Of a DNA stretch of 36,173 nucleotides, positions 2,594-35,938 are shown piece after piece. The notes beneath the pieces are model-generated. The model was given only the letters and a program-made list of their open reading frames with translations, did not search any database and had not been told where the DNA came from. The DNA lies in IMG/VR virus record IMGVR_UViG_2565956709_000006. One strand, given 5' to 3'. Position numbers and translations under genes: made by a program. Position 1 is the first letter of the stretch, and the number at the start of each line of letters is the position of its first letter. The DNA is from a virus. Its lineage: Duplodnaviria > Heunggongvirae > Uroviricota > Caudoviricetes.

Positions 2594-3643
2594 ATGGCTA
2601 ATACTGTAAAAATATCCAGTTGTGAGTTAATCAACGCTGATTGCCTGGAATTTATCCAGACCTTACCGGAAAACTCTGTCGATCTTATAGTCACAGACCC
2701 GCCATACTTTAAAGTGAAACCCGAGGGCTGGGATAACCAGTGGAAGGGCGACGATGATTACCTGAAGTGGCTGGACCAGTGTCTGGCGCAGTTCTGGCGG
2801 GTGCTGAAACCTGTCGGAAGTCTTTACCTGTTCTGTGGTCATCGCCTGGCATCTGATATCGAAATCATGATGCGTGAACGCTTCAGTGTGCTGAACCATA
2901 TTATCTGGGCGAAGCCGTCCGGACGCTGGAACGGATGCAACAAGGAAAGCCTGCGGGCGTATTTCCCCGCCACAGAGCGCATTCTGTTCGCGGAACATTA
3001 TCAGGGGCCGTATCGTCCGAAAGATGCCGGGTATGCGGCGAAGGGCAGTGCACTGAAACAGCATGTGATGGCCCCGCTGATTTCTTACTTTCGTGATGCG
3101 CGCGCGGCCCTGGGGATAACGGCAAAACAGATTGCAGATGCCACAGGAAAGAAAAACATGGTGTCGCACTGGTTCAGTGCCAGTCAGTGGCAGCTACCGA
3201 ACGAAAGCGATTATCTGAAATTACAGTCGCTGTTTGCCCGGGTGGCAGAAGAGAAACATCAGCGCGGTGAACTGGAAAAGCCCCACCACCAGCTGGTGGA
3301 TACGTATACGTCACTGAACCGGCAGTATGTGGAGCTGCAGAGTGAATATAAGCATCTGCGGCGGTATTTTGGTGTGACGGCGCAGGTGCCGTACACGGAT
3401 GTGTGGACACATAAACCGGTGCAGTTCTATCCCGGGAAACATCCGTGCGAAAAACCGGCAGAAATGCTGCAGCAGATAATCAGCGCAAGCAGTCGTCCGG
3501 GAGACCTGGTTGCAGATTTTTTTATGGGCTCAGGTTCAACGGTAAAAGCTGCACTGGCGCTCGGGCGTCGTGCGATTGGCGTTGAACTGGAGACCGGACG
3601 TTTTGAGCAGACAGTCAGGGAAGTTCAGGATTTAATCGTTTGA
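2594..3643 (+). CDS. DNA methyltransferase (N6-adenine type, beta-class), orphan, no cognate restriction gene
   Basis: 349-aa ORF. DPPY catalytic motif near the N-terminus (VTDPPYF) and FxGSGST AdoMet-binding motif near the C-terminus (ADFFMGSGSTV); motif IV before motif I is the beta-class order. No adjacent endonuclease ORF. Confidence 0.85.
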   Translation: MANTVKISSCELINADCLEFIQTLPENSVDLIVTDPPYFKVKPEGWDNQWKGDDDYLKWLDQCLAQFWRVLKPVGSLYLFCGHRLASDIEIMMRERFSVLNHIIWAKPSGRWNGCNKESLRAYFPATERILFAEHYQGPYRPKDAGYAAKGSALKQHVMAPLISYFRDARAALGITAKQIADATGKKNMVSHWFSASQWQLPNESDYLKLQSLFARVAEEKHQRGELEKPHHQLVDTYTSLNRQYVELQSEYKHLRRYFGVTAQVPYTDVWTHKPVQFYPGKHPCEKPAEMLQQIISASSRPGDLVADFFMGSGSTVKAALALGRRAIGVELETGRFEQTVREVQDLIV

Positions 3644-3692: not shown

Positions 3693-3768
3693 GGCCCTTT
3701 AGCTCAGTGGTGAGAGCGAGCGACTCATAATCGCCAGGTCGCTGGTTCAAATCCAGCAAGGGCCACCA
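3693..3768 (+). tRNA. tRNA with anticodon CAU (tRNA-Ile2-like, lysidine type, or Met)
   Basis: Hand-folded cloverleaf: acceptor GGCCCTT/AAGGGCC, D-arm GCTC..GAGC, anticodon loop CTCATAA (anticodon CAT), T-arm GCTGG-TTCAAAT-CCAGC, 3' CCA. Closely resembles E. coli ileX-type tRNA. One A-C mismatch at the top of the anticodon stem. Confidence 0.85.
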
Positions 3769-3775
3769 TCACATA

Positions 3776-3852
3776 CCGCCATTAGCTCATCAGGAAAGAG
3801 CGCCAGCCTTCGAAGCTGGTTGCGCGGGGTTCAAGTCCCCGATGGCGGTCCA
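3776..3852 (+). tRNA. tRNA-Arg (anticodon UCG)
   Basis: Hand-folded cloverleaf: acceptor CCGCCAT/ATGGCGG, anticodon stem CCAGC/GCTGG with loop CTTCGAA (anticodon TCG), T-arm CGGGG-TTCAAGT-CCCCG, 3' CCA. Confidence 0.8.
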
Positions 3853-3865
3853 TTATCTGCATCAT

Positions 3866-3942
3866 GCGTTGTTAGCTCAGCCGGACAGAGCAATTGCCTT
3901 CTAAGCAATCGGTCACTGGTTCGAATCCAGTACAACGCGCCA
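3866..3942 (+). tRNA. tRNA-Arg (anticodon UCU, reads rare AGA)
   Basis: Hand-folded cloverleaf: acceptor GCGTTGT/ACAACGC, anticodon stem ATTGC/GCAAT with loop CTTCTAA (anticodon TCT), T-arm ACTGG-TTCGAAT-CCAGT, 3' CCA. Confidence 0.8.
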
Positions 3943-22922: not shown

Positions 22923-23620
22923 TGCAGGATATTCGCGAAGAAAGTCTGAACGAGTCGGTTAAGTCAGAGCAGTCACCGCGGGTGGTACTCTGGGAAATCG
23001 ACCTGACGGTACAGGGTGGTGAGCGGTATTTTTTCTGTAATGAGCTGAATGAAAAAGGGGAGCCGGTCACCTGGCAGGGGCGTAAGTATGAGGCGTACCC
23101 GATTGATGGCAGCGGCTTTGAAATGAACGGGAAAGGCAGCAGTGCCAGACCGTCGCTGACGGTGTCCAATCTGTTCGGCCTTGTCACCGGGATGGCGGAA
23201 GACCTGCAGAGTCTGGTGGGGGCCACGGTGGTCCGCCGCCGGGTGTATGCCCGTTTTCTGGATGCGGTGAATTTTGTGGCGGGCAATCCGGAAGCGGACC
23301 CGGAGCAGGAGCTGAGCGACCGCTGGGTGGTGGAGCAGATGTCGCAGCTGACAGCCATGACGGCCTCGTTTGTGCTGGCCACACCGACCGAGACGGACGG
23401 AGCGCAGTTTCCCGGTCGTATCATGCTGGCGAACACCTGTATGTGGACCTACCGCTCTGATGAGTGTGGTTACACGGGCGGGGCTGTGGCGGATGAGTTC
23501 GATAAACCCACCACGGATATCCGTAAGGACAGATGCAGCAAGTGCATGCGCGGGTGTGAACTGCGCAGGAATGTCGGCAATTTTGGCGGTTTCCTTTCCA
23601 TTAATAAACTTTCGCAGTAA
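22922..23620 (+). CDS. L: tail tip protein L
   Basis: 232-aa ORF (lambda gpL is 232 aa) with a C-terminal cysteine cluster (CSKCMRGCE). Confidence 0.85.
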   Translation: MQDIREESLNESVKSEQSPRVVLWEIDLTVQGGERYFFCNELNEKGEPVTWQGRKYEAYPIDGSGFEMNGKGSSARPSLTVSNLFGLVTGMAEDLQSLVGATVVRRRVYARFLDAVNFVAGNPEADPEQELSDRWVVEQMSQLTAMTASFVLATPTETDGAQFPGRIMLANTCMWTYRSDECGYTGGAVADEFDKPTTDIRKDRCSKCMRGCELRRNVGNFGGFLSINKLSQ

Positions 23621-23630
23621 ATCCCGGTTT

Positions 23631-24374
23631 ATGACACAGACTGAATCAGCGATTCTGGCGCATGCCCGGCGGTGTGCGCCTGCGGAGTCGTGCGGCTTCG
23701 TGATAAGCACGCCGGAGGGGGAGCGGTATATCCCTTGTGTGAATATTTCCGCAGAGCCGGAGGCGTATTTTCGTATCGCACCGGAAGACTGGCTGCGGGC
23801 AGAGATACAGGGGGAGATTGTGGCACTGGTCCACAGTCATCCCGGTGAGCTGCCCTGGCTGAGCGAGGCTGACCGGCGGCTGCAGATAAAAAGCGCACTG
23901 CCCTGGTGGCTGGTCTGCCGGGGGGAAATTCATAAATTCTGCTGTGTGCCACATCTGACAGGACGGCGCTTTGAGCACGGGGTGACGGACTGTTACACGC
24001 TGTTCCGGGATGCATACCATCTGGCGGGAATTGATATGCCGGATTTTCATCGCGAGGATGACTGGTGGCGCAACGGCCAGAACCTGTACCTGGACAATAT
24101 GGCAGTCACCGGCTTTTACCGGGTGCCCCTGTCCTCTGCACAGCCGGGCGATATCCTGCTGTGCTGCTTCGGCGCATCGGTGGCTAATCATGCCGCCATT
24201 TACTGCGGCAACGGTGAACTGCTTCACCATATTCCTGAACAACTGAGTAAACGGGAGAGGTATTCCGAAAAATGGCAACGACGAACGCATTCTGTCTGGC
24301 GTCACCGCCACTGGCACACATCTGCCTTCACGGGGATTTACAACGATTTGGCCGCCGCCTCAGCCTGTATGTGA
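23631..24374 (+). CDS. K: tail tip assembly protein K (MPN/JAMM plus NlpC/P60-like)
   Basis: Start at ATG 23631 (MTQTESAILAHARR), 11 nt after L. HSHPGELPWLSEADRR matches the MPN/JAMM motif. Overlaps I by 103 nt, as in lambda. Start uncertain; the track ORF begins upstream at 23370 inside L. Confidence 0.75.
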   Translation: MTQTESAILAHARRCAPAESCGFVISTPEGERYIPCVNISAEPEAYFRIAPEDWLRAEIQGEIVALVHSHPGELPWLSEADRRLQIKSALPWWLVCRGEIHKFCCVPHLTGRRFEHGVTDCYTLFRDAYHLAGIDMPDFHREDDWWRNGQNLYLDNMAVTGFYRVPLSSAQPGDILLCCFGASVANHAAIYCGNGELLHHIPEQLSKRERYSEKWQRRTHSVWRHRHWHTSAFTGIYNDLAAASACM

Positions 24375-25192: not shown

Positions 25193-28100
25193 ATGGGCAA
25201 AGGTGGCGGCAAGGCGCACACACCGCGTGAGGCGAAAGACAATCTCAAATCCACGCAGATGATGAGCGTGATTGATGCGATTGGTGAGGGGCCGATAGAT
25301 GGCCCGGTGAAAGGCCTGCAGAGTATTCTGGTGAACAAAACCCCGCTGACGGACACGGACGGTAATCCCGTGATACACGGTGTGACCGCGGTCTGGCGTG
25401 CCGGGGAGCAGGAGCAGACACCACCGGAAGGCTTTGAGTCCTCCGGCTCTGAAACTGTACTGGGTGTCGAAGTGACCAGGGCAAAACCGGTAACACGCAC
25501 CATTACGTCAGCGAACATTGACCGCCTGCGGGTGACCTTCGGGGTGCAGTCACTGGTGGAGACCACGTCAAAGGGTGACCGTAATCCGTCCTCTGTCCGT
25601 CTGCTGATTCAGTTACAGCGTAACGGTAACTGGGTGACAGAAAAGGATGTCACCATTAACGGCAAGACCACCTCACAGTTCCTGGCCTCGGTGATTCTGG
25701 ATAATCTGCCTCCCCGCCCCTTTAACATCCGGATGGTCAGGGAGACGGCGGACAGCACCACGGACCAGCTGCAGAACAGAACGCTGTGGTCGTCATACAC
25801 CGAAATCATCGATGTGAAACAGTGCTACCCGAACACGGCCATTGTGGGGATGCAGGTGGATGCGGAGCAGTTTGGTGGTCAGCAGATGACGGTGAACTAC
25901 CATATCCGCGGTCGCATCATCCAGGTGCCGTCAAACTATGACCCGGAAAAACGCACGTACAGTGGTATCTGGGACGGCAGTCTGAAACCGGCATACAGCA
26001 ACAATCCGGCTTGGTGTCTGTGGGACATGCTGACTCACCCGCGCTACGGCATGGGAAAACGTCTGGGGGCGGCGGATGTGGACAAGTGGGCGCTGTATGC
26101 CATCGGGCAGTACTGCGACCAGATGGTGCCGGATGGCTTCGGGGGCACCGAGCCGCGGATGACCTTCAATGCGTACCTGGCACAACAGCGTAAGGCGTGG
26201 GATGTTCTCAGTGATTTCTGCTCGGCGATGCGCTGTATGCCGGTATGGAACGGCCAGATGCTGACGTTTGTTCAGGACCGCCTGTCGGATGTGGTGTGGC
26301 CGTACACCAACAGCGATGTGGTGGTGGATGATAACGGCGTGGGGTTCCGCTACAGCTTCAGTGCCCTGAAGGACCGGCACACGGCGGTGGAGGTGAATTA
26401 CACCGACCCGCAGAACGGCTGGCAGACCTCCACGGAGCTGGTGGAAGACCCGGAAGCCATACTGCGCTACGGGCGCAATCTGCTGAAGATGGACGCGTTC
26501 GGCTGTACCAGCCGCGGTCAGGCCCACCGTGCCGGACTGTGGGTGATAAAGACCGAACTGCTGGAAACGCAGACGGTGGATTTCACGCTCGGGTCTCAGG
26601 GGCTGCGGCACACACCCGGTGACATTATTGAAATCTGTGATAATGACTATGCCGGGACCCTGACCGGCGGACGTGTCCTGTCCATTGATGCTGCCACCCG
26701 CACCCTGACGCTGGACCGTGAGGTTACCCTGCCGGAGACCGGTGCCGCCACGGTGAACCTGATTAACGGCAGCGGTAAGCCGGTGAGTGTGGACATCACC
26801 GAACACCCCGCGCCGGACCGGATACAGGTCAGTACCCTGCCTGATGGTGTGGAGACATACGGGGTGTGGGGACTCTCCCTGCCGTCACTGCGCCGTCGCC
26901 TGTTCCGCTGTGTCTCCATCCGGGAAAACACGGACGGCACCTTTGCCATCACGGCGGTGCAGCACGTACCGGAAAAAGAAGCCATCGTGGATAACGGTGC
27001 CCGCTTTGAGCCGCAGTCAGGTTCCCTGAACAGCGTCATCCCACCGGCAGTGCAGCACCTGACGGTGGAGGTGAGCGCAGCTGACGGCCAGTATCTGGCG
27101 CAGGCGAAATGGGACACGCCGCGGGTGGTGAAGGGTGTGCGCTTCAGTCTGCGCCTGACCAGTGGTAAGGGAACGGATGCCAGACTGGTGACCACCGCCA
27201 TCACCGCAGACACGGAGCACCGTTTCAGCGGCCTGCCGCTCGGGGAATACACCCTGACGGTGCGGGCGATAAACAGCTATGGCCAGCAGGGTGAACCTGC
27301 CACCACCACCTTCCGGATTACCGCACCGGCAGCACCGTCGCGGATTGAGCTGACGCCGGGCTATTTTCAGATAACCGCAACGCCACATCTTGCCGTTTAT
27401 GACCCGACGGTACAGTTTGAGTTCTGGTTCTCGGAAAAGCGGATTGCGGATATCAGGCAGGTTGAAACCGCAGCCCGCTATCTTGGCTCGGCGCTGTACT
27501 GGATAGCTGCCAGTATCAATATCAAACCGGGCCATGATTATTATTTTTATATCCGCAGTGTGAATACTGTTGGCAAATCGGCATTCGTGGAGGCTGTCGG
27601 TCGGGCGAGCGATGATGCGGAAGGTTACCTGGATTTTTTCAAAGGAGAAATCGGGAAAACACATCTGGCCCAGGAGCTGTGGACGCAGATTGATAACGGT
27701 CAGCTTGCGCCGGACCTGGCTGAAATCAGGACGTCCATTACGAATGTCAGCAATGAAATCACGCAGACCGTCAATAAAAAACTGGAAAATCAGAGTGCGG
27801 CAATCCAGCAGATACAGAAAGTTCAGGTTGATACAAATAATAACCTGAACAGCATGTGGGCCGTGAAACTGCAGCAGATGCAGGACGGACGCCTTTATAT
27901 TGCGGGTATCGGTGCCGGTATTGAGAATACGCCAGCAGGAATGCAGAGTCAGGTGCTGCTGGCGGCAGACAGGATTGCGATGATTAATCCTGCGAATGGC
28001 AACACAAAGCCGATGTTTGTTGGTCAGGGCGATCAGATATTTATGAATGAAGTGTTCCTGAAATATCTGACGGCTCCCACCATTACCAGCGGCGGTAATC

Positions 28101-28666
28101 CTCCGGCATTTTCCCTGACACCGGACGGGCGGCTGACGGCGAAAAATGCCGATATCAGCGGTAACGTGAATGCGAACTCCGGGACGCTCAACAACGTCAC
28201 GATTAACGAGAACTGTCGGGTTCTGGGAAAATTGTCCGCGAACCAGATTGAAGGCGATCTCGTTAAAACAGTGGGCAAAGCTTTCCCCCGGGACTCCCGT
28301 GCACCGGAGCGGTGGCCATCAGGAACCATTACCGTCAGGGTTTATGACGATCAGCCGTTTGACCGGCAGATTGTTATTCCGGCGGTGGCATTCAGCGGCG
28401 CTAAACATGAGAAAGAGCATACTGATATTTACTCCTCATGCCGTCTGATAGTGCGGAAAAACGGTGCTGAAATTTATAACCGTACCGCGCTGGATAATAC
28501 GCTGATTTACAGTGGTGTTATTGATATGCCTGCCGGTCACGGTCACATGACACTGGAGTTTTCGGTGTCAGCATGGCTGGTAAATAACTGGTATCCCACA
28601 GCAAGTATCAGCGATTTGCTGGTTGTGGTGATGAAGAAAGCCACTGCAGGCATCACGATTAGCTGA
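25193..28666 (+). CDS. J: central tail fibre / host specificity protein J
   Basis: 1157-aa ORF collinear with lambda gpJ from [18 protein letters not shown] through the fibronectin-like repeats to the C-terminal receptor-binding domain. RBS AAGAGGTGATG. Confidence 0.95.
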
Positions 28667-28733: not shown

Positions 28734-29333
28734 ATGCGTAAATTATGTGCTGTTATTTTGTCCGCAGTAGTCTGGCAGGTCGCCGCTGCTACGCCAGCGA
28801 GTGCAGCAGAACATCAGTCCACGCTGAGCGCGGGGTATCTCCATGCCTCGACGAACGTTCCCGGTAGTGATGATCTGAACGGGATTAACGTGAAATACCG
28901 TTATGAGTTTACGGACACGCTGGGGCTGGTGACGTCATTCAGTTATGCCAATGCCAAAGATGAGCAAAAAACGCATTACAGCGATACCCGCTGGCATGAA
29001 GATTCCGTGCGTAACCGCTGGTTCAGCGTGATGGCGGGGCCGTCTGTGCGCGTGAATGAATGGTTCAGCGCGTATGCGATGGCGGGTGTGGCTTACAGCC
29101 GTGTGTCGACTTTCTCCGGGGATTATCTCCGCGTAACTGACAACAAGGGGAAAACGCACGATGTGCTGACCGGAAGTGATGACGGTCGCCACAGCAACAC
29201 GTCTCTGGCGTGGGGGGCTGGCGTGCAGTTTAACCCGACCGAATCCGTGACCATTGACCTTGCTTATGAAGGTTCCGGTAGTGGCGACTGGCGAACGGAT
29301 GCATTTATTGTTGGTATCGGATACCGTTTCTGA
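28734..29333 (+). CDS. lom: Lom/Ail-family outer membrane beta-barrel protein (moron)
   Basis: 199-aa ORF with signal peptide (MRKLCAVILSAVVWQVAAATPASA), alternating beta-strand pattern and C-terminal ...GIGYRF. Flanked by terminators on both sides, as in lambda. Confidence 0.9.
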   Translation: MRKLCAVILSAVVWQVAAATPASAAEHQSTLSAGYLHASTNVPGSDDLNGINVKYRYEFTDTLGLVTSFSYANAKDEQKTHYSDTRWHEDSVRNRWFSVMAGPSVRVNEWFSAYAMAGVAYSRVSTFSGDYLRVTDNKGKTHDVLTGSDDGRHSNTSLAWGAGVQFNPTESVTIDLAYEGSGSGDWRTDAFIVGIGYRF

Positions 29334-29484: not shown

Positions 29485-32391
29485 ATGACAGTAAAAATTT
29501 CTGGCGTGCTTAAAGATGGCACAGGAAAACCAGTACAGAACTGCACCATTGTGCTGAAGGCCAGACGAACCAGCAGCACGGTGGTGGTGAACACGGTGGC
29601 CTCTGAAAATCCGGATGAAGCCGGACGTTACAGCATGGATGTTGAGCATGGTCAGTACAGCGTCACCCTGCTGGTTGAAGGTTTTCCGCCTTCACATGCC
29701 GGGACCATTACCGTCTATGAAGGTTCCAGACCAGGTACGCTGAATGATTTTCTCGGTGCCATGACGGAGGATGATGTCCGACCGGAGGCACTGCGCCGCT
29801 TTGAGCAGATGGTGGAAGAGGTGTCACGTAACGCCTCCGCGGTTGCACAGAATACGGCAGCCGCGAAAAAATCAGCCAGCGATGCCAGTGCATCAGCCAG
29901 CGAGGCGGCAACTCATGCAACCGATGCTGCAGCCTCAGCACGTGCCGCCAGCACGTCAGCCGGACAGGCCGCGTCGTCGGCTCAGTCAGCGTCTTCCAGC
30001 GCAGGAACGGCATCGACAAAGGCCCGTGAAGCAGCAAAAAGTGCTGCTGCTGCAGAGTCATCAAAAAGCGCGGCAGCTACCAGCGCCAGTGCCGCGAAAA
30101 CGTCAGAAACGAATGCCGCAGCATCACAAAAATCGGCAGCCACTTCTGCATCCACAGCGACCACGAAGGCGTCAGAAGCTGCCACCTCGGCACGGGGTGC
30201 GGCGGCCTCAAAAGAGGCAGCGAAATCATCAGAAACGAACGCATCATCAAGCGCCAGTAGTGCCGCTTCCTCGGCAACGGCGGCAGGCAATTCCGCGAAG
30301 GCGGCAAAGACGTCTGAGACAAACGCCAGGTCTTCTGAAACGGCAGCGGGACAGAGCGCCTCGGCTGCGGCAGGCTCAAAAACAGCGGCTGCGTCGTCTG
30401 CCAGTGCCGCGTCAACAAGTGCCGGGCAGGCCTCAGCCAGTGCCACCGCCGCCGGAAAATCGGCAGAAAGCGCCGCATCATCCGCTTCAACAGCCACAAC
30501 GAAGGCTGGCAAAGCCACTGAGCAAGCCACTGCAGCAGCGAGGTCTGCTTCTGCAGCAAAAACCTCTGAAACAAATGCAAAGACTTCAGCAGACAATGCT
30601 GCTTCCTCTAAGGCGGCAGCCGCATCGTCAGCCAGTTCAGCGGCGTCATCGGCATCATCTGCGTCTGCTTCAAAAGATGAGGCGACCAGACAAGCGTCAG
30701 CAGCGAAAGGTAGTGCCACGACAGCAACAATGAAAGCATCAGAGGCAGCTGGTAGTGTGACGGCGGCAGCTCAGAGCAAAAGTACGGCGGAATCCGCGGC
30801 AACGCGCGCCGAGACAGCAGCAAAACGGGCAGAGGATATTGCATCCGCCGTGGCGCTGGAGGATGCGAGCACGACGAAAAAGGGGATAGTACAGCTCAGC
30901 AGTGCGACCAACAGCACTTCCGAGTCACTGGCGGCAACGCCAAAAGCGGTTAAGGCGGTAATGGGTGAAACGAACAAGAAAGCGCCCTTAAATAGTCCTG
31001 CACTGACCGGAACGCCAACAACACCAACTGCGCGACAGGGAACGAATAATACCCAAATCGCAAGCACGGCTTATGTTATGGCTGCGATCGCTGCCCTCGT
31101 GGACTCGTCGCCTGACGCACTGAATACGCTGAACGAGCTGGCTGCGGCGTTGGGCAACGACCCGAATTTTGCGACCACCATGACTAACGCGCTTGCGGGT
31201 AAGCAACCGAAAGATGCCACCCTGACGGCGCTGGCCGGGCTTGCTACTGCGGCAGACAGGTTTCCGTATTTTACGGGGAATGATGTTGCCAGTCTGGCAA
31301 CCCTGACAAAAGTTGGGCGGGATATTCTTGCGAAATCGACCGTTGCCGCCGTTATCGAATACCTCGGTTTACAGGAAACGGTAAACAAGGCTGGTAACGC
31401 CGTTCAGCGTTCCGGCGATAAAATGACCGGAGAACTGAAAATTGGCACGGTGAATGCGCTGCGAATTTTCAATGATGCCTTCGGTCTTATTTTCCGTCGT
31501 TCAGAAGATTTTCTTCATTTCATTCCGACGGCTGAAGGACAAGGCGAAAACGGTGATATAGGCCCATTAAGGCCATTCGCTATAAATCTGAGAACAGGTG
31601 CTATATCTGTCAGCCACGGGGCCAAAATTGATGGTGGGCTGGCGCTTGGTACAGATAACGCACTGGGCGGTAATTCCATTACTCTCGGAGATAACGACAC
31701 TGGTATTAAACAGGGCGGCGACGGTGTCCTTTTATTCTATTCAAATGGACAACTGGCATTTGGACTTCAACCCGCATCTGCTGATTTTTATAAGCGGGTT
31801 GCATATATTCATCAGGGAATAATTCCTGATGGAAGTGGCGCATTTGCAGACCAGTTGAATAATGCCACCGCGCCTTTTGTTCAGACGCAGTTTGCCTGGA
31901 ATCCCACTCCTGGTGGTCATTACGTGCCGATAGTTAAGGGCTTGTCCATTCGCAATGGACAGGGCTATCCCGGCGCGGTCAGCTTTGGGTATTTACTGAC
32001 AGAACAGTATGGATTTCCGGTTCCATGTATTCATATGCGTGGCGATGGCGGTAATGATGCTTTATGGCAGTTTAACCCGAACGATAAATCCTTTATTTCA
32101 CCGGGTGCTCTTATTGCGGGTGGCGTCCGTTATAACACCGATGGAAATATATTTGGTGGGTGCTGGGGTTCAAACTTAAATGATTACCTGAATAGTTCTT
32201 TTATCAGAAATGTGCGTCTGGGAGGCAGACGTTCTGACACATTATATCGCGGAGGACTTTGCGAACCAGGTAATGGTCATGTGACAACAGGATTGCAAAT
32301 TATTGGTGAGGTTGATGGAGATGACTGGATGGTGTCACGACCACTACAAAAATACATTTCTGGTAACTGGTATAACGTTGAACAGGCATAG
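29485..32391 (+). CDS. stf: side tail fibre protein (constant N-terminal part, Ala/Ser-rich repetitive shaft, variable C-terminal tip)
   Basis: 968-aa ORF. Conserved prophage Stf N-terminal domain (MTVKISGVLKDGTGKPVQNCTIVLKA...), then about 330 aa of low-complexity Ala/Ser/Thr-rich repeats (recurring KTSETNA units). The C-terminal third begins at a gix-like recombination site and shares the motif ALGGNSI.LGDNDTG.KQ with the silent alternative tip on the opposite strand. Confidence 0.9.
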   Translation: MTVKISGVLKDGTGKPVQNCTIVLKARRTSSTVVVNTVASENPDEAGRYSMDVEHGQYSVTLLVEGFPPSHAGTITVYEGSRPGTLNDFLGAMTEDDVRPEALRRFEQMVEEVSRNASAVAQNTAAAKKSASDASASASEAATHATDAAASARAASTSAGQAASSAQSASSSAGTASTKAREAAKSAAAAESSKSAAATSASAAKTSETNAAASQKSAATSASTATTKASEAATSARGAAASKEAAKSSETNASSSASSAASSATAAGNSAKAAKTSETNARSSETAAGQSASAAAGSKTAAASSASAASTSAGQASASATAAGKSAESAASSASTATTKAGKATEQATAAARSASAAKTSETNAKTSADNAASSKAAAASSASSAASSASSASASKDEATRQASAAKGSATTATMKASEAAGSVTAAAQSKSTAESAATRAETAAKRAEDIASAVALEDASTTKKGIVQLSSATNSTSESLAATPKAVKAVMGETNKKAPLNSPALTGTPTTPTARQGTNNTQIASTAYVMAAIAALVDSSPDALNTLNELAAALGNDPNFATTMTNALAGKQPKDATLTALAGLATAADRFPYFTGNDVASLATLTKVGRDILAKSTVAAVIEYLGLQETVNKAGNAVQRSGDKMTGELKIGTVNALRIFNDAFGLIFRRSEDFLHFIPTAEGQGENGDIGPLRPFAINLRTGAISVSHGAKIDGGLALGTDNALGGNSITLGDNDTGIKQGGDGVLLFYSNGQLAFGLQPASADFYKRVAYIHQGIIPDGSGAFADQLNNATAPFVQTQFAWNPTPGGHYVPIVKGLSIRNGQGYPGAVSFGYLLTEQYGFPVPCIHMRGDGGNDALWQFNPNDKSFISPGALIAGGVRYNTDGNIFGGCWGSNLNDYLNSSFIRNVRLGGRRSDTLYRGGLCEPGNGHVTTGLQIIGEVDGDDWMVSRPLQKYISGNWYNVEQA
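31352..31377. repeat. left crossover site (gix/pix-like 26-bp inverted repeat) inside stf
   Basis: TTATCGAATACCTCGGTTTACAGGAA. Matches the reverse complement of 34433..34458 at 22 of 26 positions and resembles the known gix/pix consensus (TTCCTGTAAACCGAGGTTTTGGATAA). Confidence 0.8.
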
Positions 32392-32406
32392 CCATCAGGA
32401 GAATAT

Positions 32407-32934
32407 ATGCAACATCTGAAAAATATTACCGCCGGAAACCCCAAAACCATTGAGCAGTATCAGCTTACGAAAAAAGCTGGCGTTATCTGGCTATATACAG
32501 AAGACGGTAAAAACTGGTATGACGAATTAAAAAACTTTCAGGATGATACTTTAAAAATAGCTTATGACCAGAAGGGGATTATTCGTTGTATTGAGAAAGA
32601 CGTATCAACACTTAACCCTGACGGGTTAAGTGTTGTTGAGTTACCGAATATAACAGCCAACCGTCGCGCCGATATCTCGGGAAACTGGAAGTTTCTGGAT
32701 GGTAAAGTAGTAAAGCGGGAATATACAAAACAGGAACTGCAACAGCAGGCAGAGTTACAAAAAGCCGCTTTGCTTTCCGAAGCGGAGTCTGTGATTCAAC
32801 CGCTGGAACGTGCTGTCAGACTGAATATGGCAACTGATGAGGAACGCACACGACTGGAATCATGGGAACGCTACAGCGTTATGGTCAGCCGTGTGGATAC
32901 TGCAAAGCCTGAATGGCCACAGAAACCAGAATAA
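32407..32934 (+). CDS. tfa: tail fibre assembly protein (expressed copy)
   Basis: 175-aa ORF with RBS AGGAGAATAT, directly after stf. Tfa-family N-terminus ([38 protein letters not shown]). Paralogous to the convergent minus-strand copy. Confidence 0.9.
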
Positions 32935-32944
32935 CAACAAATTA

Positions 32945-32965
32945 AGGCCCGTACGGGCCTTTTCT
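32945..32965. terminator. bidirectional terminator between the convergent tfa genes
   Basis: Palindrome GGCCCG-TA-CGGGCC flanked by A/T runs. Confidence 0.6.
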
Positions 32966-33498
32966 TATTCTGGTGGTTCCGGGAATGTTACAGGAAGAAC
33001 CGAGGTATCAGTTGTCTCAACCTGTTGCACGTATCGCATCCAGTTCATCAGTTGCTGTCTGTCTGAATCAGTGATAATCCCCAAAGTAAGCTGTGTTTGC
33101 CAGAACTGCGTTTTTTCTCTGGCCTGCTGTAATAATATTTTTTTCTGGTTTTCCGTCTGTAGGCGCAACTCTTCTTCGGTATATACACGTTTAATGACTG
33201 CGCCATCTTTAAACATCCATTTACCTGAGTCGTCAGCACGCCGGTTGGCGGTAATATCAGGAATCTCAACGACGCTATAACCTTCAGGGTTAAGTGTGGA
33301 GGCATCTTTGGTTATGGCAACAATAATATTATTTTCATCGTAAACAATCTTTATGGTGTCTGGCTGAAAGTTTTTCACTTCCTCATACCAGTTTTTTTCG
33401 TCCTCAGAGTAAAGCCAGATAACTCCGTGTTTCTTTGTTAACTCATACTGTTCCAGTGTTTTAGCATTACCCGCTTTTATGTTCTTTAAGTGCATCAT
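32965..33498 (-). CDS. tfa: tail fibre assembly protein, alternative (silent-orientation) copy
   Basis: 177-aa minus-strand ORF ([38 protein letters not shown]...) paralogous to tfa; inverted orientation inside the invertible segment. Confidence 0.85.
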
Positions 33499-33499
33499 A

Positions 33500-34432
33500 T
33501 TAAACGCTCGCTACATTATACCAGGTGCCATTTATATACTTTTGAACGGGTCTGTAATAAACGCCCGCTATATTATCGGCAGAGTTAGACCCTGTATCCT
33601 GAACATTAATACCAGACAATACATGACCTGAAGGGCACCGGAAATACCATGTTTGCCAGTTGTTCACTCCATAATATTGCTGTGAACCAAGTCGAACATC
33701 TTTCACATAACGGGAATCAAAGTTACCGTAATCCGAGGGGTTAACACGCCCTGTAATATTTATGGTTTTATTACTTTGAATGCTTCCGGAGACAAAGCGC
33801 ATAACATGGACGTTATTAGCATAAACATCCAGATTACCATCGCCATTTTGTTTAAAGCCCGTGTCATTATCACCCAATACAATCGAATTACCGCCAAGAG
33901 CACTGGATGTTCCGATACCCAGTGTACCATTCAGTTGACCACCAGATAACGGCAGTGCACCAACATCTCCTGCTGAAGGTTTTCTGGTGGTGGTGTAAAA
34001 TTCGGACCAGTCGGCTTCAAAACCATAACCATCACGGGCTGAACGATAAAAAACACCGCCATTTTTATAATTAATCCGAAACTGAGCTGCAGGACAACTT
34101 CCTTCTCCCATATAAAAATGAATAATTAACGTTGATGCACCACTAATAGTTGCGTTATAGGCTCCGCTACTCCAGTTCCATCCAACTGCTTTATCATTCG
34201 CAACGGTGCTTCCTGTTTTCCCTAAGGCAAACGCACCAACATGACTTGCTTTTAATGTGATATCGGAGGAACCATCAAAAGCCACATTGCTTATTTTCCT
34301 GGCAGTTTTTAATTTTGCAGCTGTAGAAGCATTGCCGGATAGTTCACCAGAAAGGCCACCGCTGAATGTTTGTCGATTAGTCCAGGTATTCGCTGTACTG
34401 AGTAACGGTATTTTCTCCCCGCTTGTGCCGAG
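33500..34432 (-). CDS. alternative side tail fibre C-terminal segment (promoterless silent cassette; fuses to the stf constant part after inversion)
   Basis: Minus-strand frame open from the right crossover site (manual translation from 34450 downward: [17 protein letters not shown]...AFDGSSD...) to the stop at 33500. In-frame with stf across the crossover core (CTC GGT TTA). Shares [22 protein letters not shown] with the expressed tip. The track lists only the part from an internal GTG (33500..34285). Confidence 0.75.
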
Positions 34433-34458
34433 TTCTCGTAAACCGAGGTTTTAGATAA
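34433..34458. repeat. right crossover site (gix/pix-like 26-bp inverted repeat)
   Basis: TTCTCGTAAACCGAGGTTTTAGATAA, inverted partner of 31352..31377, located just upstream of the pin gene as in Mu G / P1 C / e14 invertible segments. Confidence 0.8.
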
Positions 34459-34512
34459 TGGCGGTTTCTGGCCTGTATGGCATGATTTGTGCTTTTGGAC
34501 GGGAGATTCAGC

Positions 34513-34745
34513 GTGCTGATTGGCTATGTAAGGGTATCAACAAATGACCAGAATACAGATCTGCAACGAAACGCTCTTGTTTGTGCAGGATATGAACAAA
34601 TATTTGAAGATAAATTAAGCGGAACAAGGACAGGCCGACCTGGATTAAAACGTGCTTTAAAGCGCCTTCAAAAAGGTGACGCACTGGTTGTCTGAAAACT
34701 GGACTGACTGGTTCACTGTATGCGGCATCTTGTCGTGCTGGTGGT
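34513..34745 (+). pseudogene. pin: pin-type serine DNA invertase, inactivated (nonsense mutations and 3' truncation)
   Basis: GTG start. The first 59 codons encode VLIGYVRVSTNDQNTDLQRNALVCAGYEQIFEDKLSGTRTGRPGLKRALKRLQKGDALVV (catalytic Ser in YVRVST). Then TGA where the family has Trp, a second in-frame TGA four codons later, and after about codon 76 the sequence runs into a tfa 3' fragment. The resolvase catalytic core and C-terminal HTH are missing. Confidence 0.8.
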
Positions 34746-34746
34746 G

Positions 34747-34887
34747 GAAGCCTGGAAAAAGTATCGGGTGTTGCTGAACCGTGTTGATACATCAACTGCA
34801 CCTGATATTGAGTGGCCTACGAACCCTGTCAGGGAGTAATCATTGGGATTATGCCGCAGCACGTCTTAAGCAAGAACGTGCTGCGGT
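34747..34887 (+). repeat. direct repeat copy A: tfa 3' end fragment plus hairpin
   Basis: Encodes ...[30 protein letters not shown]-stop, followed by an 11-bp-stem hairpin (CCGCAGCACGT ... ACGTGCTGCGG). About 88 percent identical to 35796..35938, including an identical 39-nt core CGTGTTGATACATCAACTGCACCTGATATTGAGTGGCCT. Confidence 0.8.
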
Positions 34888-34893
34888 TGGATG

Positions 34894-35562
34894 CTATTTT
34901 TTCCCTGAAGCGGAAAACATTACTACAGTACCTTGAACCTTGGTTTTAACATTCTCGAAATGCTCTGAGAGTATATGTGTTAAGCCTTCTTCGGAATCTT
35001 TTGTGTTTGAAAAGATGCCTTTCTGATTGTAAATGCGCATCAGTTTTTGACCGAAGCTATTGTGCACAACTCCATCGCCAAGAATTGTGGCTCCGTATAG
35101 AGTTCCATCGTCAGTTAAGGCCTGCGCCGCATTGCGTATTACACAGCTTTTTGTAGATATATTTCCAGGCAGGCAGTGAAGAAGGTAAAACATGGAAATG
35201 GAATCAAATTGACCATGTAACGCCGCGGGATAAGGTTCAAAAACATCATGGCTAATTTTATGTTTAATTTTTGATTCCCCAGCCCTTGTAGATGCCGCGT
35301 TCAGGCTAGCTTCGTTCAAATCCATTAAAGATATCAGACTACTCTCAGGTACGTGAGTAAGGTAAAACCCAGTTCCAACACCAATATCCAGATGGTTGTT
35401 ACCTACATGTTCCAGAAAGTGTGGAAGAAGGTGTTCCTTTGTAGGACATCCCCATGCAAGCCGATTTGATACTCCCAAAACCCACCAGTCATAAAGCTTT
35501 AGGGTAAGTGGTGTGTAAATTTTAGCCCCATCATCTGTGTTTTTTTTCATTGATTTCACCAT
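34894..35562 (-). CDS. class I SAM-dependent methyltransferase (small-molecule/protein/RNA type, not a DNA MTase by motifs)
   Basis: 222-aa minus-strand ORF (alternative start at 35550 has the better RBS). Motif I LDIGVGTGFY, acidic post-I residue (LMDLNE), motif II FDSISMFYLLHCLP, motif III LTDDGTLYGATIL. AT-rich relative to the phage structural genes. Bracketed by direct repeats. Confidence 0.7.
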   Translation of the reverse strand: MVKSMKKNTDDGAKIYTPLTLKLYDWWVLGVSNRLAWGCPTKEHLLPHFLEHVGNNHLDIGVGTGFYLTHVPESSLISLMDLNEASLNAASTRAGESKIKHKISHDVFEPYPAALHGQFDSISMFYLLHCLPGNISTKSCVIRNAAQALTDDGTLYGATILGDGVVHNSFGQKLMRIYNQKGIFSNTKDSEEGLTHILSEHFENVKTKVQGTVVMFSASGKK

Positions 35563-35618: not shown

Positions 35619-35888
35619 ATGCTGCCGCAGCATAGCGATATTGAAATAGCCTGGTATGCTTCGATACAGCAGGAGCCGAATGGCTGGAAGACCGTCACCA
35701 CACAGTTCTACATCCAGGAATTCAGTGAGTATATTGCGCCACTGCAGGATGCTGTAGATCTGGAAATCGCAACGGAGGAAGAAAGATCGTTGCTGGAGGC
35801 ATGGAATAAATATCGGGTATTGTTGAATCGTGTTGATACATCAACTGCACCTGATATTGAGTGGCCTGCAAATCCTGTCAGGGAGTAA
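35619..35888 (+). CDS. tail fibre assembly protein C-terminal-domain remnant (truncated tfa-like ORF)
   Basis: 89-aa ORF with RBS AAGGGG. The C-terminus ...[37 protein letters not shown] aligns with the Tfa C-terminal region. Lacks the Tfa N-terminal half. Confidence 0.5.
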
Positions 35889-35938
35889 TCATTGGGATTA
35901 TGCCGCAGACACGTCGTATGCAGGAACGTGCTGCGGTT
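35796..35938 (+). repeat. direct repeat copy B: tfa 3' end fragment plus hairpin
   Basis: See copy A. Together the two copies bracket the SAM methyltransferase gene. Confidence 0.8.

Follow-up and report, generated by a model that had tools for sequence, protein, structure and literature searches.

A Mu G-segment-type inversion cassette beside a truncated invertase gene on the stf locus of an Escherichia coli lambdoid prophage

Introduction

The side tail-fibre (stf) locus of a tailed-phage sequence raises two related questions. In the 36,173-nucleotide stretch of DNA analysed here, referred to throughout as the window, a pair of inverted repeats brackets two opposed fibre tips, each with its own chaperone gene, and the recombinase gene next to them is broken. 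Does this segment invert and, if it does, which enzyme turns it over?

Switches of this class have been textbook material since the 1980s, the standard examples being the G segment of Mu, the C segment of P1 and the P segment of e14. The locus itself is also already known, having been described in the E. coli ST131 strain EC958 in 2014 (PMC4134206), and it carries little weight as a discovery.

Results

The 26-bp inverted repeats proposed in the initial annotation were recovered exactly. The left copy, TTATCGAATACCTCGGTTTACAGGAA (31352-31377), and the reverse complement of 34433-34458, TTATCTAAAACCTCGGTTTACGAGAA, are identical at 22 of 26 positions, and a repeat finder extends them to arms of 32 nt (31346-31377 and 34433-34464) that are 84% complementary. 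Within these arms the longest perfect match is 12 bp, ACCTCGGTTTAC. The Mu gix site agrees with the left site at 24 of 26 positions and with the right site at 23 of 26, and the central TC dinucleotide is common to all three. The e14 pix site (the single site found in e14, with up to seven mismatches allowed) agrees with the window sites at 19 of 26 positions and has a TT core. The resemblance to both gix and pix that had been suggested is thus upheld for gix and given up for pix.

A gix-like pattern with no more than three mismatches matches just these two sites of the 36-kb window, which are inverted relative to each other, and gave no match in 100 dinucleotide-preserving shuffles, the chance expectation being none. 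Extra or quasi crossover sites were absent from the window, both for the gix pattern at up to three mismatches and for the site sequence at up to seven. Some sequence is common to fibre tips and to tfa genes, for example a 40-nt inverted repeat (73%) at the 3' ends of the two tips, and the crossover repeats, with no role in recombination, might accordingly be a chance match or a by-product of the head-to-head arrangement of homologous fibre genes. This reading is barely credible: it is refuted by the shuffles, by the match to gix and by the exact predicted isomer in 139 natural genomes (see below).

Multiple-inversion systems have more than two crossover sites and several invertible sub-segments, and shufflons in addition use a tyrosine recombinase and 19-bp sfx sites. 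A system of the R64 shufflon/Rci or p15B Min kind was rejected, as only two gix-like sites are present even at seven mismatches. A shufflon with a tyrosine recombinase and sfx sites was likewise rejected, since the adjoining remnant comes from a serine (Resolvase-type) recombinase.

The constant 5' part of the fibre gene lies outside the segment, which contains two opposed 3' parts, each accompanied by a tfa gene and both in frame (Table 1). In the window orientation the open reading frame at 29485-32391 encodes an Stf protein of 968 aa, of which residues 1-134 are spanned by Pfam phage_tail_N (E=5e-70), and nucleotides 30901-31372 share 93% identity with the fibre gene of EC958 prophage Phi1, in its constant part. 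The silent tip lacks a start codon at its 5' end and, as a protein, is about 81% identical to the C-termini of P2-like gpH. Open reading frames and Pfam matches together agree with the arrangement first read from the DNA, namely a tip and tfa on the plus strand and tfa' and a start-less silent tip on the minus strand, all between the sites. A sigma-70 scan, uninformative at 6 sites against 8.8 expected, placed none upstream of the silent tip. In PGAP annotation the expressed tip is left unannotated in the window orientation.

Table 1. Features of the stf inversion locus (window coordinates)
Feature	Position	Strand	Remarks
stf constant part (Sc)	29485..31363	+	start codon to crossover core; expressed in both orientations
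Left 26-bp crossover site, gix-like	31352..31377	.	TTATCGAATACC TC GGTTTACAGGAA; central TC at 31364-31365
Variable fibre tip (Sv), expressed in window orientation	31366..32391	+	continuous with stf; stop 32389-32391
tfa (U-like chaperone), partner of expressed tip	32407..32934	+	175-aa ORF; Pfam Caudo_TAP E=9e-35
GC-rich hairpin AAGGCCCGTACGGGCCTT	32944..32961	.	between convergent tfa genes; putative terminator, pattern match, both strands
tfa' (U'-like chaperone), silent in window orientation	32965..33498	-	177-aa ORF; Pfam Caudo_TAP E=6e-32
Silent alternative fibre tip (S'v)	33500..34444	-	Pfam gp37_C; frame open from crossover core to stop
Right 26-bp crossover site	34433..34458	.	reverse complement = TTATCTAAAACC TC GGTTTACGAGAA; plus-strand core GA at 34445-34446
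gin-like serine invertase remnant	34513..34746	+	start GTG 34513; homology stops near 34746
Putative Fis-bound recombinational enhancer (sis) stretch	34534..34597	.	colinear with enhancer-bearing part of gin and hin
tfa 3' end fused to invertase remnant	34742..34839	+	direct repeat with 35791-35908

Inversion of 31364-34446 in silico gave one continuous Stf of 941 aa across the junction. Re-translation thereby bears out the proposal that the silent tip is in frame with the stf constant region across the crossover core, and the same CDS of 2826 nt (941 codons) is annotated in genomes that carry the inverted isomer.

The occurrence of both orientations was surveyed in 5,426 complete E. coli genomes, using the window orientation and a synthetic inverted sequence as queries. 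The window orientation gave a single full-length match in 233 genomes. The exactly predicted inverted form, on whose existence the initial annotation had staked its reading, is present in 139, at identities of up to 100.0%. The same truncated invertase lies downstream in genomes of both orientations. Near-clonal ST131 isolates moreover show opposite orientations at the same coordinate, as in U15A and U12A (at 1484603), strain ST131 and strain 2019_APHA (at 23694), and 2017_APHA and EcPF18 (at 23532). In WS3294A the first 16,461 bp repeat the last 16,461 bp, with indels only and 0 mismatches outside the segment and with the segment inverted; this duplication is an untrimmed end overlap from a culture holding both forms. 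WS3294A is 100% identical to the window over 30900-35000 and just 84-99% identical in other parts, and has an IS66-family insertion between the terminase subunit genes. Both orientations have also been seen in PacBio reads of a single culture for prophage Phi4 of EC958 (Forde et al. 2014, PMC4134206), and a second ST131 study describes reversible inversion in a lambdoid prophage without an invertase. The switch flips in nature.

Three inverted isomers (JJ1886, MLI121 and the start copy of WS3294A) were read base by base. All three retain the outer half-sites, as judged by polymorphic positions 6 and 9, and have exchanged the inner ones, as judged by positions 22 and 23; the crossover accordingly falls inside the 26-bp site, between its positions 9 and 22. 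This interval would also fit a homologous exchange inside the repeat, that is, RecA-dependent recombination between the 32-nt inverted repeats with no site-specific invertase. The arms, however, match perfectly over 12 bp at most, as given above, which is well short of what efficient RecA recombination requires. The near-perfect gix sites with matched cores, the differences in orientation among near-identical isolates and within one culture, and the figure of about 50% of reads at the sister Phi1 locus (PMC4134206) also speak against a RecA-dependent exchange, which is very improbable here.

The recombinase remnant was compared with gin, pinE and the Phi1 invertase by DNA alignment and codon by codon. 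Its codons 1-60 (the first 180 nt) are 96.7% identical to Mu gin at the nucleotide level, and pinE is 70% identical over the same length. TGA stop codons stand at 34693 (Trp61) and 34705 (codon 65), nucleotides 34723-34746 are pinE-like, and homology is absent past about codon 78. About 115 C-terminal residues, the DNA-binding domain included, are gone, and the Pfam Resolvase match is confined to profile positions 2-69 of 145. What adjoins the segment is only a remnant, not an intact serine invertase gene. PGAP labels it in EC958 'recombinase family protein, incomplete', and the Phi4 invertase has been called 'severely truncated' (Forde 2014, PMC4134206). The tfa 3' end to which it is fused, labelled 'tail fiber assembly protein, missing N-terminus' by PGAP, belongs to a direct repeat (34742-34859 and 35791-35908) of 91% identity, or 90/101 by alignment, and this fusion marks a deletion or recombination that took away the rest of the invertase gene. 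Since the cassette's own invertase is dead, inversion must be catalysed in trans, and the cassette is non-autonomous.

The enhancer of such systems lies inside the invertase gene (Kahmann 1985; Johnson & Simon 1985; as cited in PMC3798978). Nucleotides 34513-34692 align with Mu gin with no indels, and each 30-nt block is at least 97% identical except for one at 90%. The retained 5' gin segment, judged by this colinearity, may be a cis enhancer that still serves the cassette; the exact positions of the Fis sites within 34534-34597 presumably follow those of the hin enhancer.

The dead invertase, with its two stops and the C-terminal 115 or so residues gone, could also belong to a frozen relic, a cassette that is structurally intact but no longer inverts in this genome. 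An intact, close, full-length gin-like invertase is present in only 641 of the 5,426 E. coli genomes, and the strain may be without a compatible one. However, both orientations are common with the same dead invertase, in near-clonal isolates and in a single culture among others, and E. coli prophages often encode more distant invertases of the Pin family, which are known to cross-complement Gin. A frozen relic is therefore unlikely, and the reading of an active cassette served in trans is kept below.

With regard to the source of the enzyme, an intact gin-like invertase co-occurs with the locus, in either orientation, in strains 4/1-1, 4/4, AR_0055 and AR_0058. Phi1 of EC958, which is P2-like, encodes an intact invertase of 199 aa, WP_000905061.1, and has crossover sites nearly identical to those of the window. 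Together with the literature, the co-occurrence in these four strains suggests that the trans enzyme is probably the invertase of a P2-like prophage, Phi1 being the best candidate in ST131. Dependence on an enzyme in trans was proposed already by Forde et al. 2014 (PMC4134206).

Among known systems, Phi4 of EC958 has the same locus, at 99.7% identity over 30900-35000 (Forde et al. 2014, PLoS One 9:e104400, PMC4134206), in the same ompW/trp chromosomal neighbourhood and with the invertase truncated alike. Both of its 26-bp sites are identical to those of the window (Phi4_5prime to the left and Phi4_3prime to the right; Table 3, PMC4134206), and its segment is given there as 3106 bp, against 3107 bp counted for the window span with both sites included. 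The insertion sequence ISEc12 splits the upstream lom gene in EC958, and the window has an intact lom; elsewhere the two differ by only a few SNPs. The prophage may be defective.

The G segment of Mu shows the same order (Sc / gix / Sv-U / U'-S'v / gix / invertase), and the 8 nt beyond the left site are shared as well. Unlike in Mu S, the constant part in the window is that of a lambdoid Stf (PF08400 N-terminus and an Ala/Ser-rich shaft); the tips show only patchy nucleotide similarity (72-79%) to Mu S and S', and the invertase is a pseudogene, unlike Mu gin. The Muvirus Yersinia phage vB_YpM_3 (MT374852) is 97% identical in nucleotide sequence to window positions 31345-33554, a stretch that holds the left site, the expressed tip, tfa and most of tfa'. 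Its fibre has 100% protein identity to the expressed tip and its gene order is the same, but its own invertase is intact, its silent tip is another one and its fibre N-terminus is of the Mu type. On the other side of the segment, Phi1 is 96% identical in nucleotide sequence to positions 33179-34703 (tfa', the silent tip, the right site and the 5' end of the invertase gene). It differs in its intact invertase, its segment of 2773 bp and its P2-type fibre, and is a separate element, proposed above as the enzyme donor. The e14 P segment with PinE and pix and the P1 C segment with Cin and cix are switches of the same kind with enzymes of the same family, although e14, with its single pix site at up to seven mismatches, is a poorer comparator than Mu.

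Discussion

Every structural claim behind the proposed exchange of a fibre tip together with its chaperone was reproduced. The locus is very probably an inversion cassette of the Mu G-segment type on the stf gene of an E. coli lambdoid prophage near ompW/trp, with the invertase supplied in trans. On this model, a serine invertase of the Gin/Pin family would bind both 26-bp gix-like sites and, with the Fis-bound enhancer, would carry out strand exchange at the central TC, flipping the segment of roughly 3.1 kb. With the segment as in the window, tip 1 completes the constant Stf N-terminus and tfa is the chaperone expressed with it; once the segment has turned over, tip 2 takes that place, again in frame (941 aa), and tfa' is expressed instead. 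The invertase gene of the cassette itself is a pseudogene, and the enzyme must come from another prophage.

By analogy with Mu and P1, the switch may alter adsorption or host range. In lambdoid phages J is the primary receptor-binding protein and Stf is an accessory side fibre, so the phenotypic effect of a tip swap may be smaller.

A further proposal is that the cassette lost its invertase but kept the first ~230 nt of the gene for the sake of the Fis enhancer, with an unrelated P2-like prophage controlling the switch through its invertase. We regard this as possible but somewhat doubtful. Its only new element is the selective retention of the enhancer-bearing remnant, the trans dependence having been put forward in 2014.

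For genome analysis, the segment is a real source of artefacts of assembly and annotation, as seen in the 16-kb overlap of WS3294A and in the unannotated expressed tip, and isolate-to-isolate differences in its orientation should not be taken for phylogenetic signal. The locus is also a convenient natural reporter of trans-acting invertase activity between co-resident prophages. If the retention proposal is true, the fibre phase of one prophage would be set by another prophage in the same cell.

Crossover sites and gene layout

The initial annotation had placed here an invertible tail-fibre cassette bounded by two inverted 26-mers of gix/pix type, matching at 22 of 26 positions. Both positions and the count were reproduced: the left site and the reverse complement of the right site differ at site positions 6, 9, 22 and 23, and share the central dinucleotide TC (GA on the plus strand at the right site). 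A repeat finder returned arms of 32 nt each (31346-31377 and 34433-34464) that are 84% complementary. A gix-like pattern allowing up to three mismatches matched the window at these two sites only, in opposite orientations, and was absent from 100/100 dinucleotide-preserving shuffles of the window. Identity to Mu gix is 24/26 and 23/26 for the two sites, which are of gix rather than pix type.

Features of the tail-fibre region (window positions)
Feature	Position	Strand	Remarks
Tail-tip gene J	25193-28666		upstream of the sites
lom, intact	28734-29333		Ail/Lom family, 199 aa; upstream of the sites
stf	29485-32391	plus	968-aa ORF; prophage tail-fibre N-terminal domain PF08400, E=5e-70
Left site	31352-31377		TTATCGAATACCTCGGTTTACAGGAA; central TC at 31364-31365
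tfa	32407-32934	plus	after stf; Caudo_TAP
GC-rich hairpin	32944-32961		both strands fit a terminator pattern (pattern match)
tfa'	32965-33498	minus	Caudo_TAP
Silent fibre tip	33500-34444	minus	gp37_C; frame open to the right site; without its own start codon
Right site	34433-34458		reverse complement TTATCTAAAACCTCGGTTTACGAGAA; central GA at 34445-34446 on the plus strand
gin-like remnant	34513 (GTG start)		downstream of the right site

ORF and Pfam analyses confirmed the proposed layout, with the stf tip and tfa on the plus strand and tfa' and a second tip on the minus strand. The left site lies within stf, whose expressed tip comprises the 341 codons past the core. The silent tip had also been described as open to the crossover and in frame with the stf constant part; in silico inversion of 31364-34446 gave a single 941-aa ORF reading through the junction, and frame continuity therefore holds.

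Where the segment is oriented as in the window, the PGAP entry for stf is reduced to a pseudogene 'missing C-terminus' (29485-30981) and the expressed tip has no annotation (window 30982-32391; L001:6083-7507 in the locus of strain EC958), despite the continuous 968-aa ORF. Where it is inverted, PGAP reports the 941-aa fibre as intact and labels the other tip a 'hypothetical protein'. Over a long stretch (29860-30800) the Stf shaft is of low complexity, rich in Ala, Ser and Thr, and contains a 33-nt repeat family in six copies; this gives rise to a number of long but spurious ORFs in alternative frames and on the other strand (e.g. 29771-30733, 29982-30719).

Both orientations occur in E. coli genomes

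Window positions 30900-35000, in native form and as a synthetic copy with 31364-34446 inverted, were searched against all complete RefSeq E. coli genomes. The match threshold was 80%. On one strand the wrong isomer can match no more than 75% of a query, so that the native and inverted counts cannot overlap. Over its full length the native query matched 233 genomes, once in each, and the inverted query 139, with identity in the latter of up to 100.0% (MLI121); the same invertase remnant, tfa fragment and downstream methyltransferase are present in all of these matches. Among near-clonal ST131 strains, opposite orientations were found at one coordinate in U15A and U12A (both 1484603), strain ST131 and strain 2019_APHA (both 23694) and 2017_APHA and EcPF18 (both 23532), and at the same chromosomal locus in EC958 and JJ1886. 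The predicted inverted isomer therefore exists and the segment is invertible as claimed, which confirms the observation and supports its interpretation as an invertible tail-fibre segment.

In the inverted copies of JJ1886, MLI121 and the start of the WS3294A record the outer half-sites are kept (positions 6 and 9) and the inner ones swapped (22 and 23), which puts the crossover in the interval from position 9 to position 22 of the site, as predicted for exchange at the central dinucleotide.

In the WS3294A chromosome record (NZ_CP035819.1), the terminal 16,461 bp are also present at the beginning (start locus, L003:1-16461; end locus, L004:24692-41165). Outside the segment the copies differ by 13 indels and 0 mismatches, and the 3.1-kb segment is inverted between them. 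The duplication is an untrimmed circularisation overlap, an assembly artefact that doubles part of the prophage in a 'complete' record; its oppositely oriented segments show that both forms were present in the reads of one culture. The overlap runs from the tail genes to the methyltransferase, and the tape-measure and tail genes are frameshifted in the start copy.

An invertible fibre segment at this locus is already known. Forde et al. (2014; PMC4134206) described the same locus as prophage Phi4 of EC958, and their Table 3 lists exactly both cassette sites (1484784..1484809 and c1487865..1487890), with an invertible segment of 3106 bp and an imperfect inverted repeat of 36 bp; by alignment to EC958, these coordinates map to window 31352 and 34458. 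The same authors found the opposite orientation as a separate PacBio contig, called the Phi4 invertase 'severely truncated' and proposed that the invertase of Phi1, a second EC958 prophage, acts in trans. A later ST131 study likewise reported that fibre inversion in a lambdoid prophage without an invertase is reversible.

The lom gene is intact in the window vs split in EC958 by an ISEc12 (IS21-family) insertion (L001:1249-4434), and the window is thus a less decayed copy of the Phi4-type prophage. Three tRNA genes (Met-CAT, Arg-TCG, Arg-TCT) cluster at 3693-3942 in the late-regulatory region, downstream of a DNA methyltransferase-sized ORF (2594-3643); the equivalent position in WS3294A holds tRNA-Ile and tRNA-Arg.

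The adjacent invertase gene is dead

Codons 1-60 of the remnant are 96.7% identical in nucleotide sequence to Mu gin and 95% to the intact Phi1 invertase. TGA stops follow at 34693 (codon 61, which encodes Trp in Gin and PinE) and at 34705 (codon 65). The remnant is a mosaic, gin-like (97%) through codon 60, with 34723-34746 matching e14 pinE at 83% vs gin at 47%. Invertase homology stops near 34746, and the sequence continues as a tfa 3' end, a 91% copy of 35791-35908. The Pfam Resolvase match covers profile positions 2-69 of 145 only. The cassette's adjacent invertase gene is dead: a product would have only a minor part of the catalytic domain and neither the oligomerisation helix nor the DNA-binding domain. 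The roles of these missing parts in serine invertases are established.

The tfa 3' ends form two 91% direct repeats (34742-34888 and 35791-35938), each followed by similar hairpin-like sequence. They flank a reverse-oriented gene (34894-35562, minus strand) for a 222-aa class I SAM-dependent methyltransferase; another, N-terminally truncated tfa lies at 35619-35888. The methyltransferase resembles a moron inserted via recombination between tfa ends, and the truncation of the invertase gene looks like a result of that same event.

Module origin and plausible trans supply of invertase

The left 2.2 kb of the cassette, expressed tip included, shows 97% identity with the G-like segment of the Muvirus Yersinia phage vB_YpM_3, in which the gene order is the same and the invertase is intact. 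The silent tip shares ∼ 81% identity with P2-like gpH C-termini. By these sequence matches and the similarity to Mu gix, the cassette is a mosaic: a G segment of Mu/P2 type attached to a lambdoid Stf. By analogy, the tip swap would affect host range, in a lambdoid phage through the accessory side fibres.

The cassette is non-autonomous. In the P2-like Phi1, an intact 199-aa invertase adjoins the prophage's own invertible fibre segment, with crossover sites TTATCGAATACC TC GGTTTACGAGAA and TTATTTAAAACC TC GGTTTACGAGAA. Phi1 is 96% identical to window 33179-34703, and the constant part of its fibre gene 93% identical to 30901-31372. Full-length copies of the Phi1 invertase gene occur in 641 of the 5,426 genomes, including carriers of the cassette in either orientation (4/1-1, 4/4, AR_0055, AR_0058). 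The enzyme, its sites, the similarity and the co-occurrence in carriers together make it plausible that invertase is supplied to the cassette in trans.

The Hin enhancer is located in the part of hin equivalent to that holding the enhancer of gin. The surviving 5' portion of the remnant, a putative enhancer, aligns colinearly with this part of gin, in which Kahmann et al. (1985, as cited in PMC3798978) placed the Fis-dependent enhancer; for Hin, a separate 60-bp recombinational enhancer is attributed in the same source to Johnson & Simon (1985). The remnant may have persisted because it carries this enhancer, which would leave the cassette dependent on the enzyme of another prophage.
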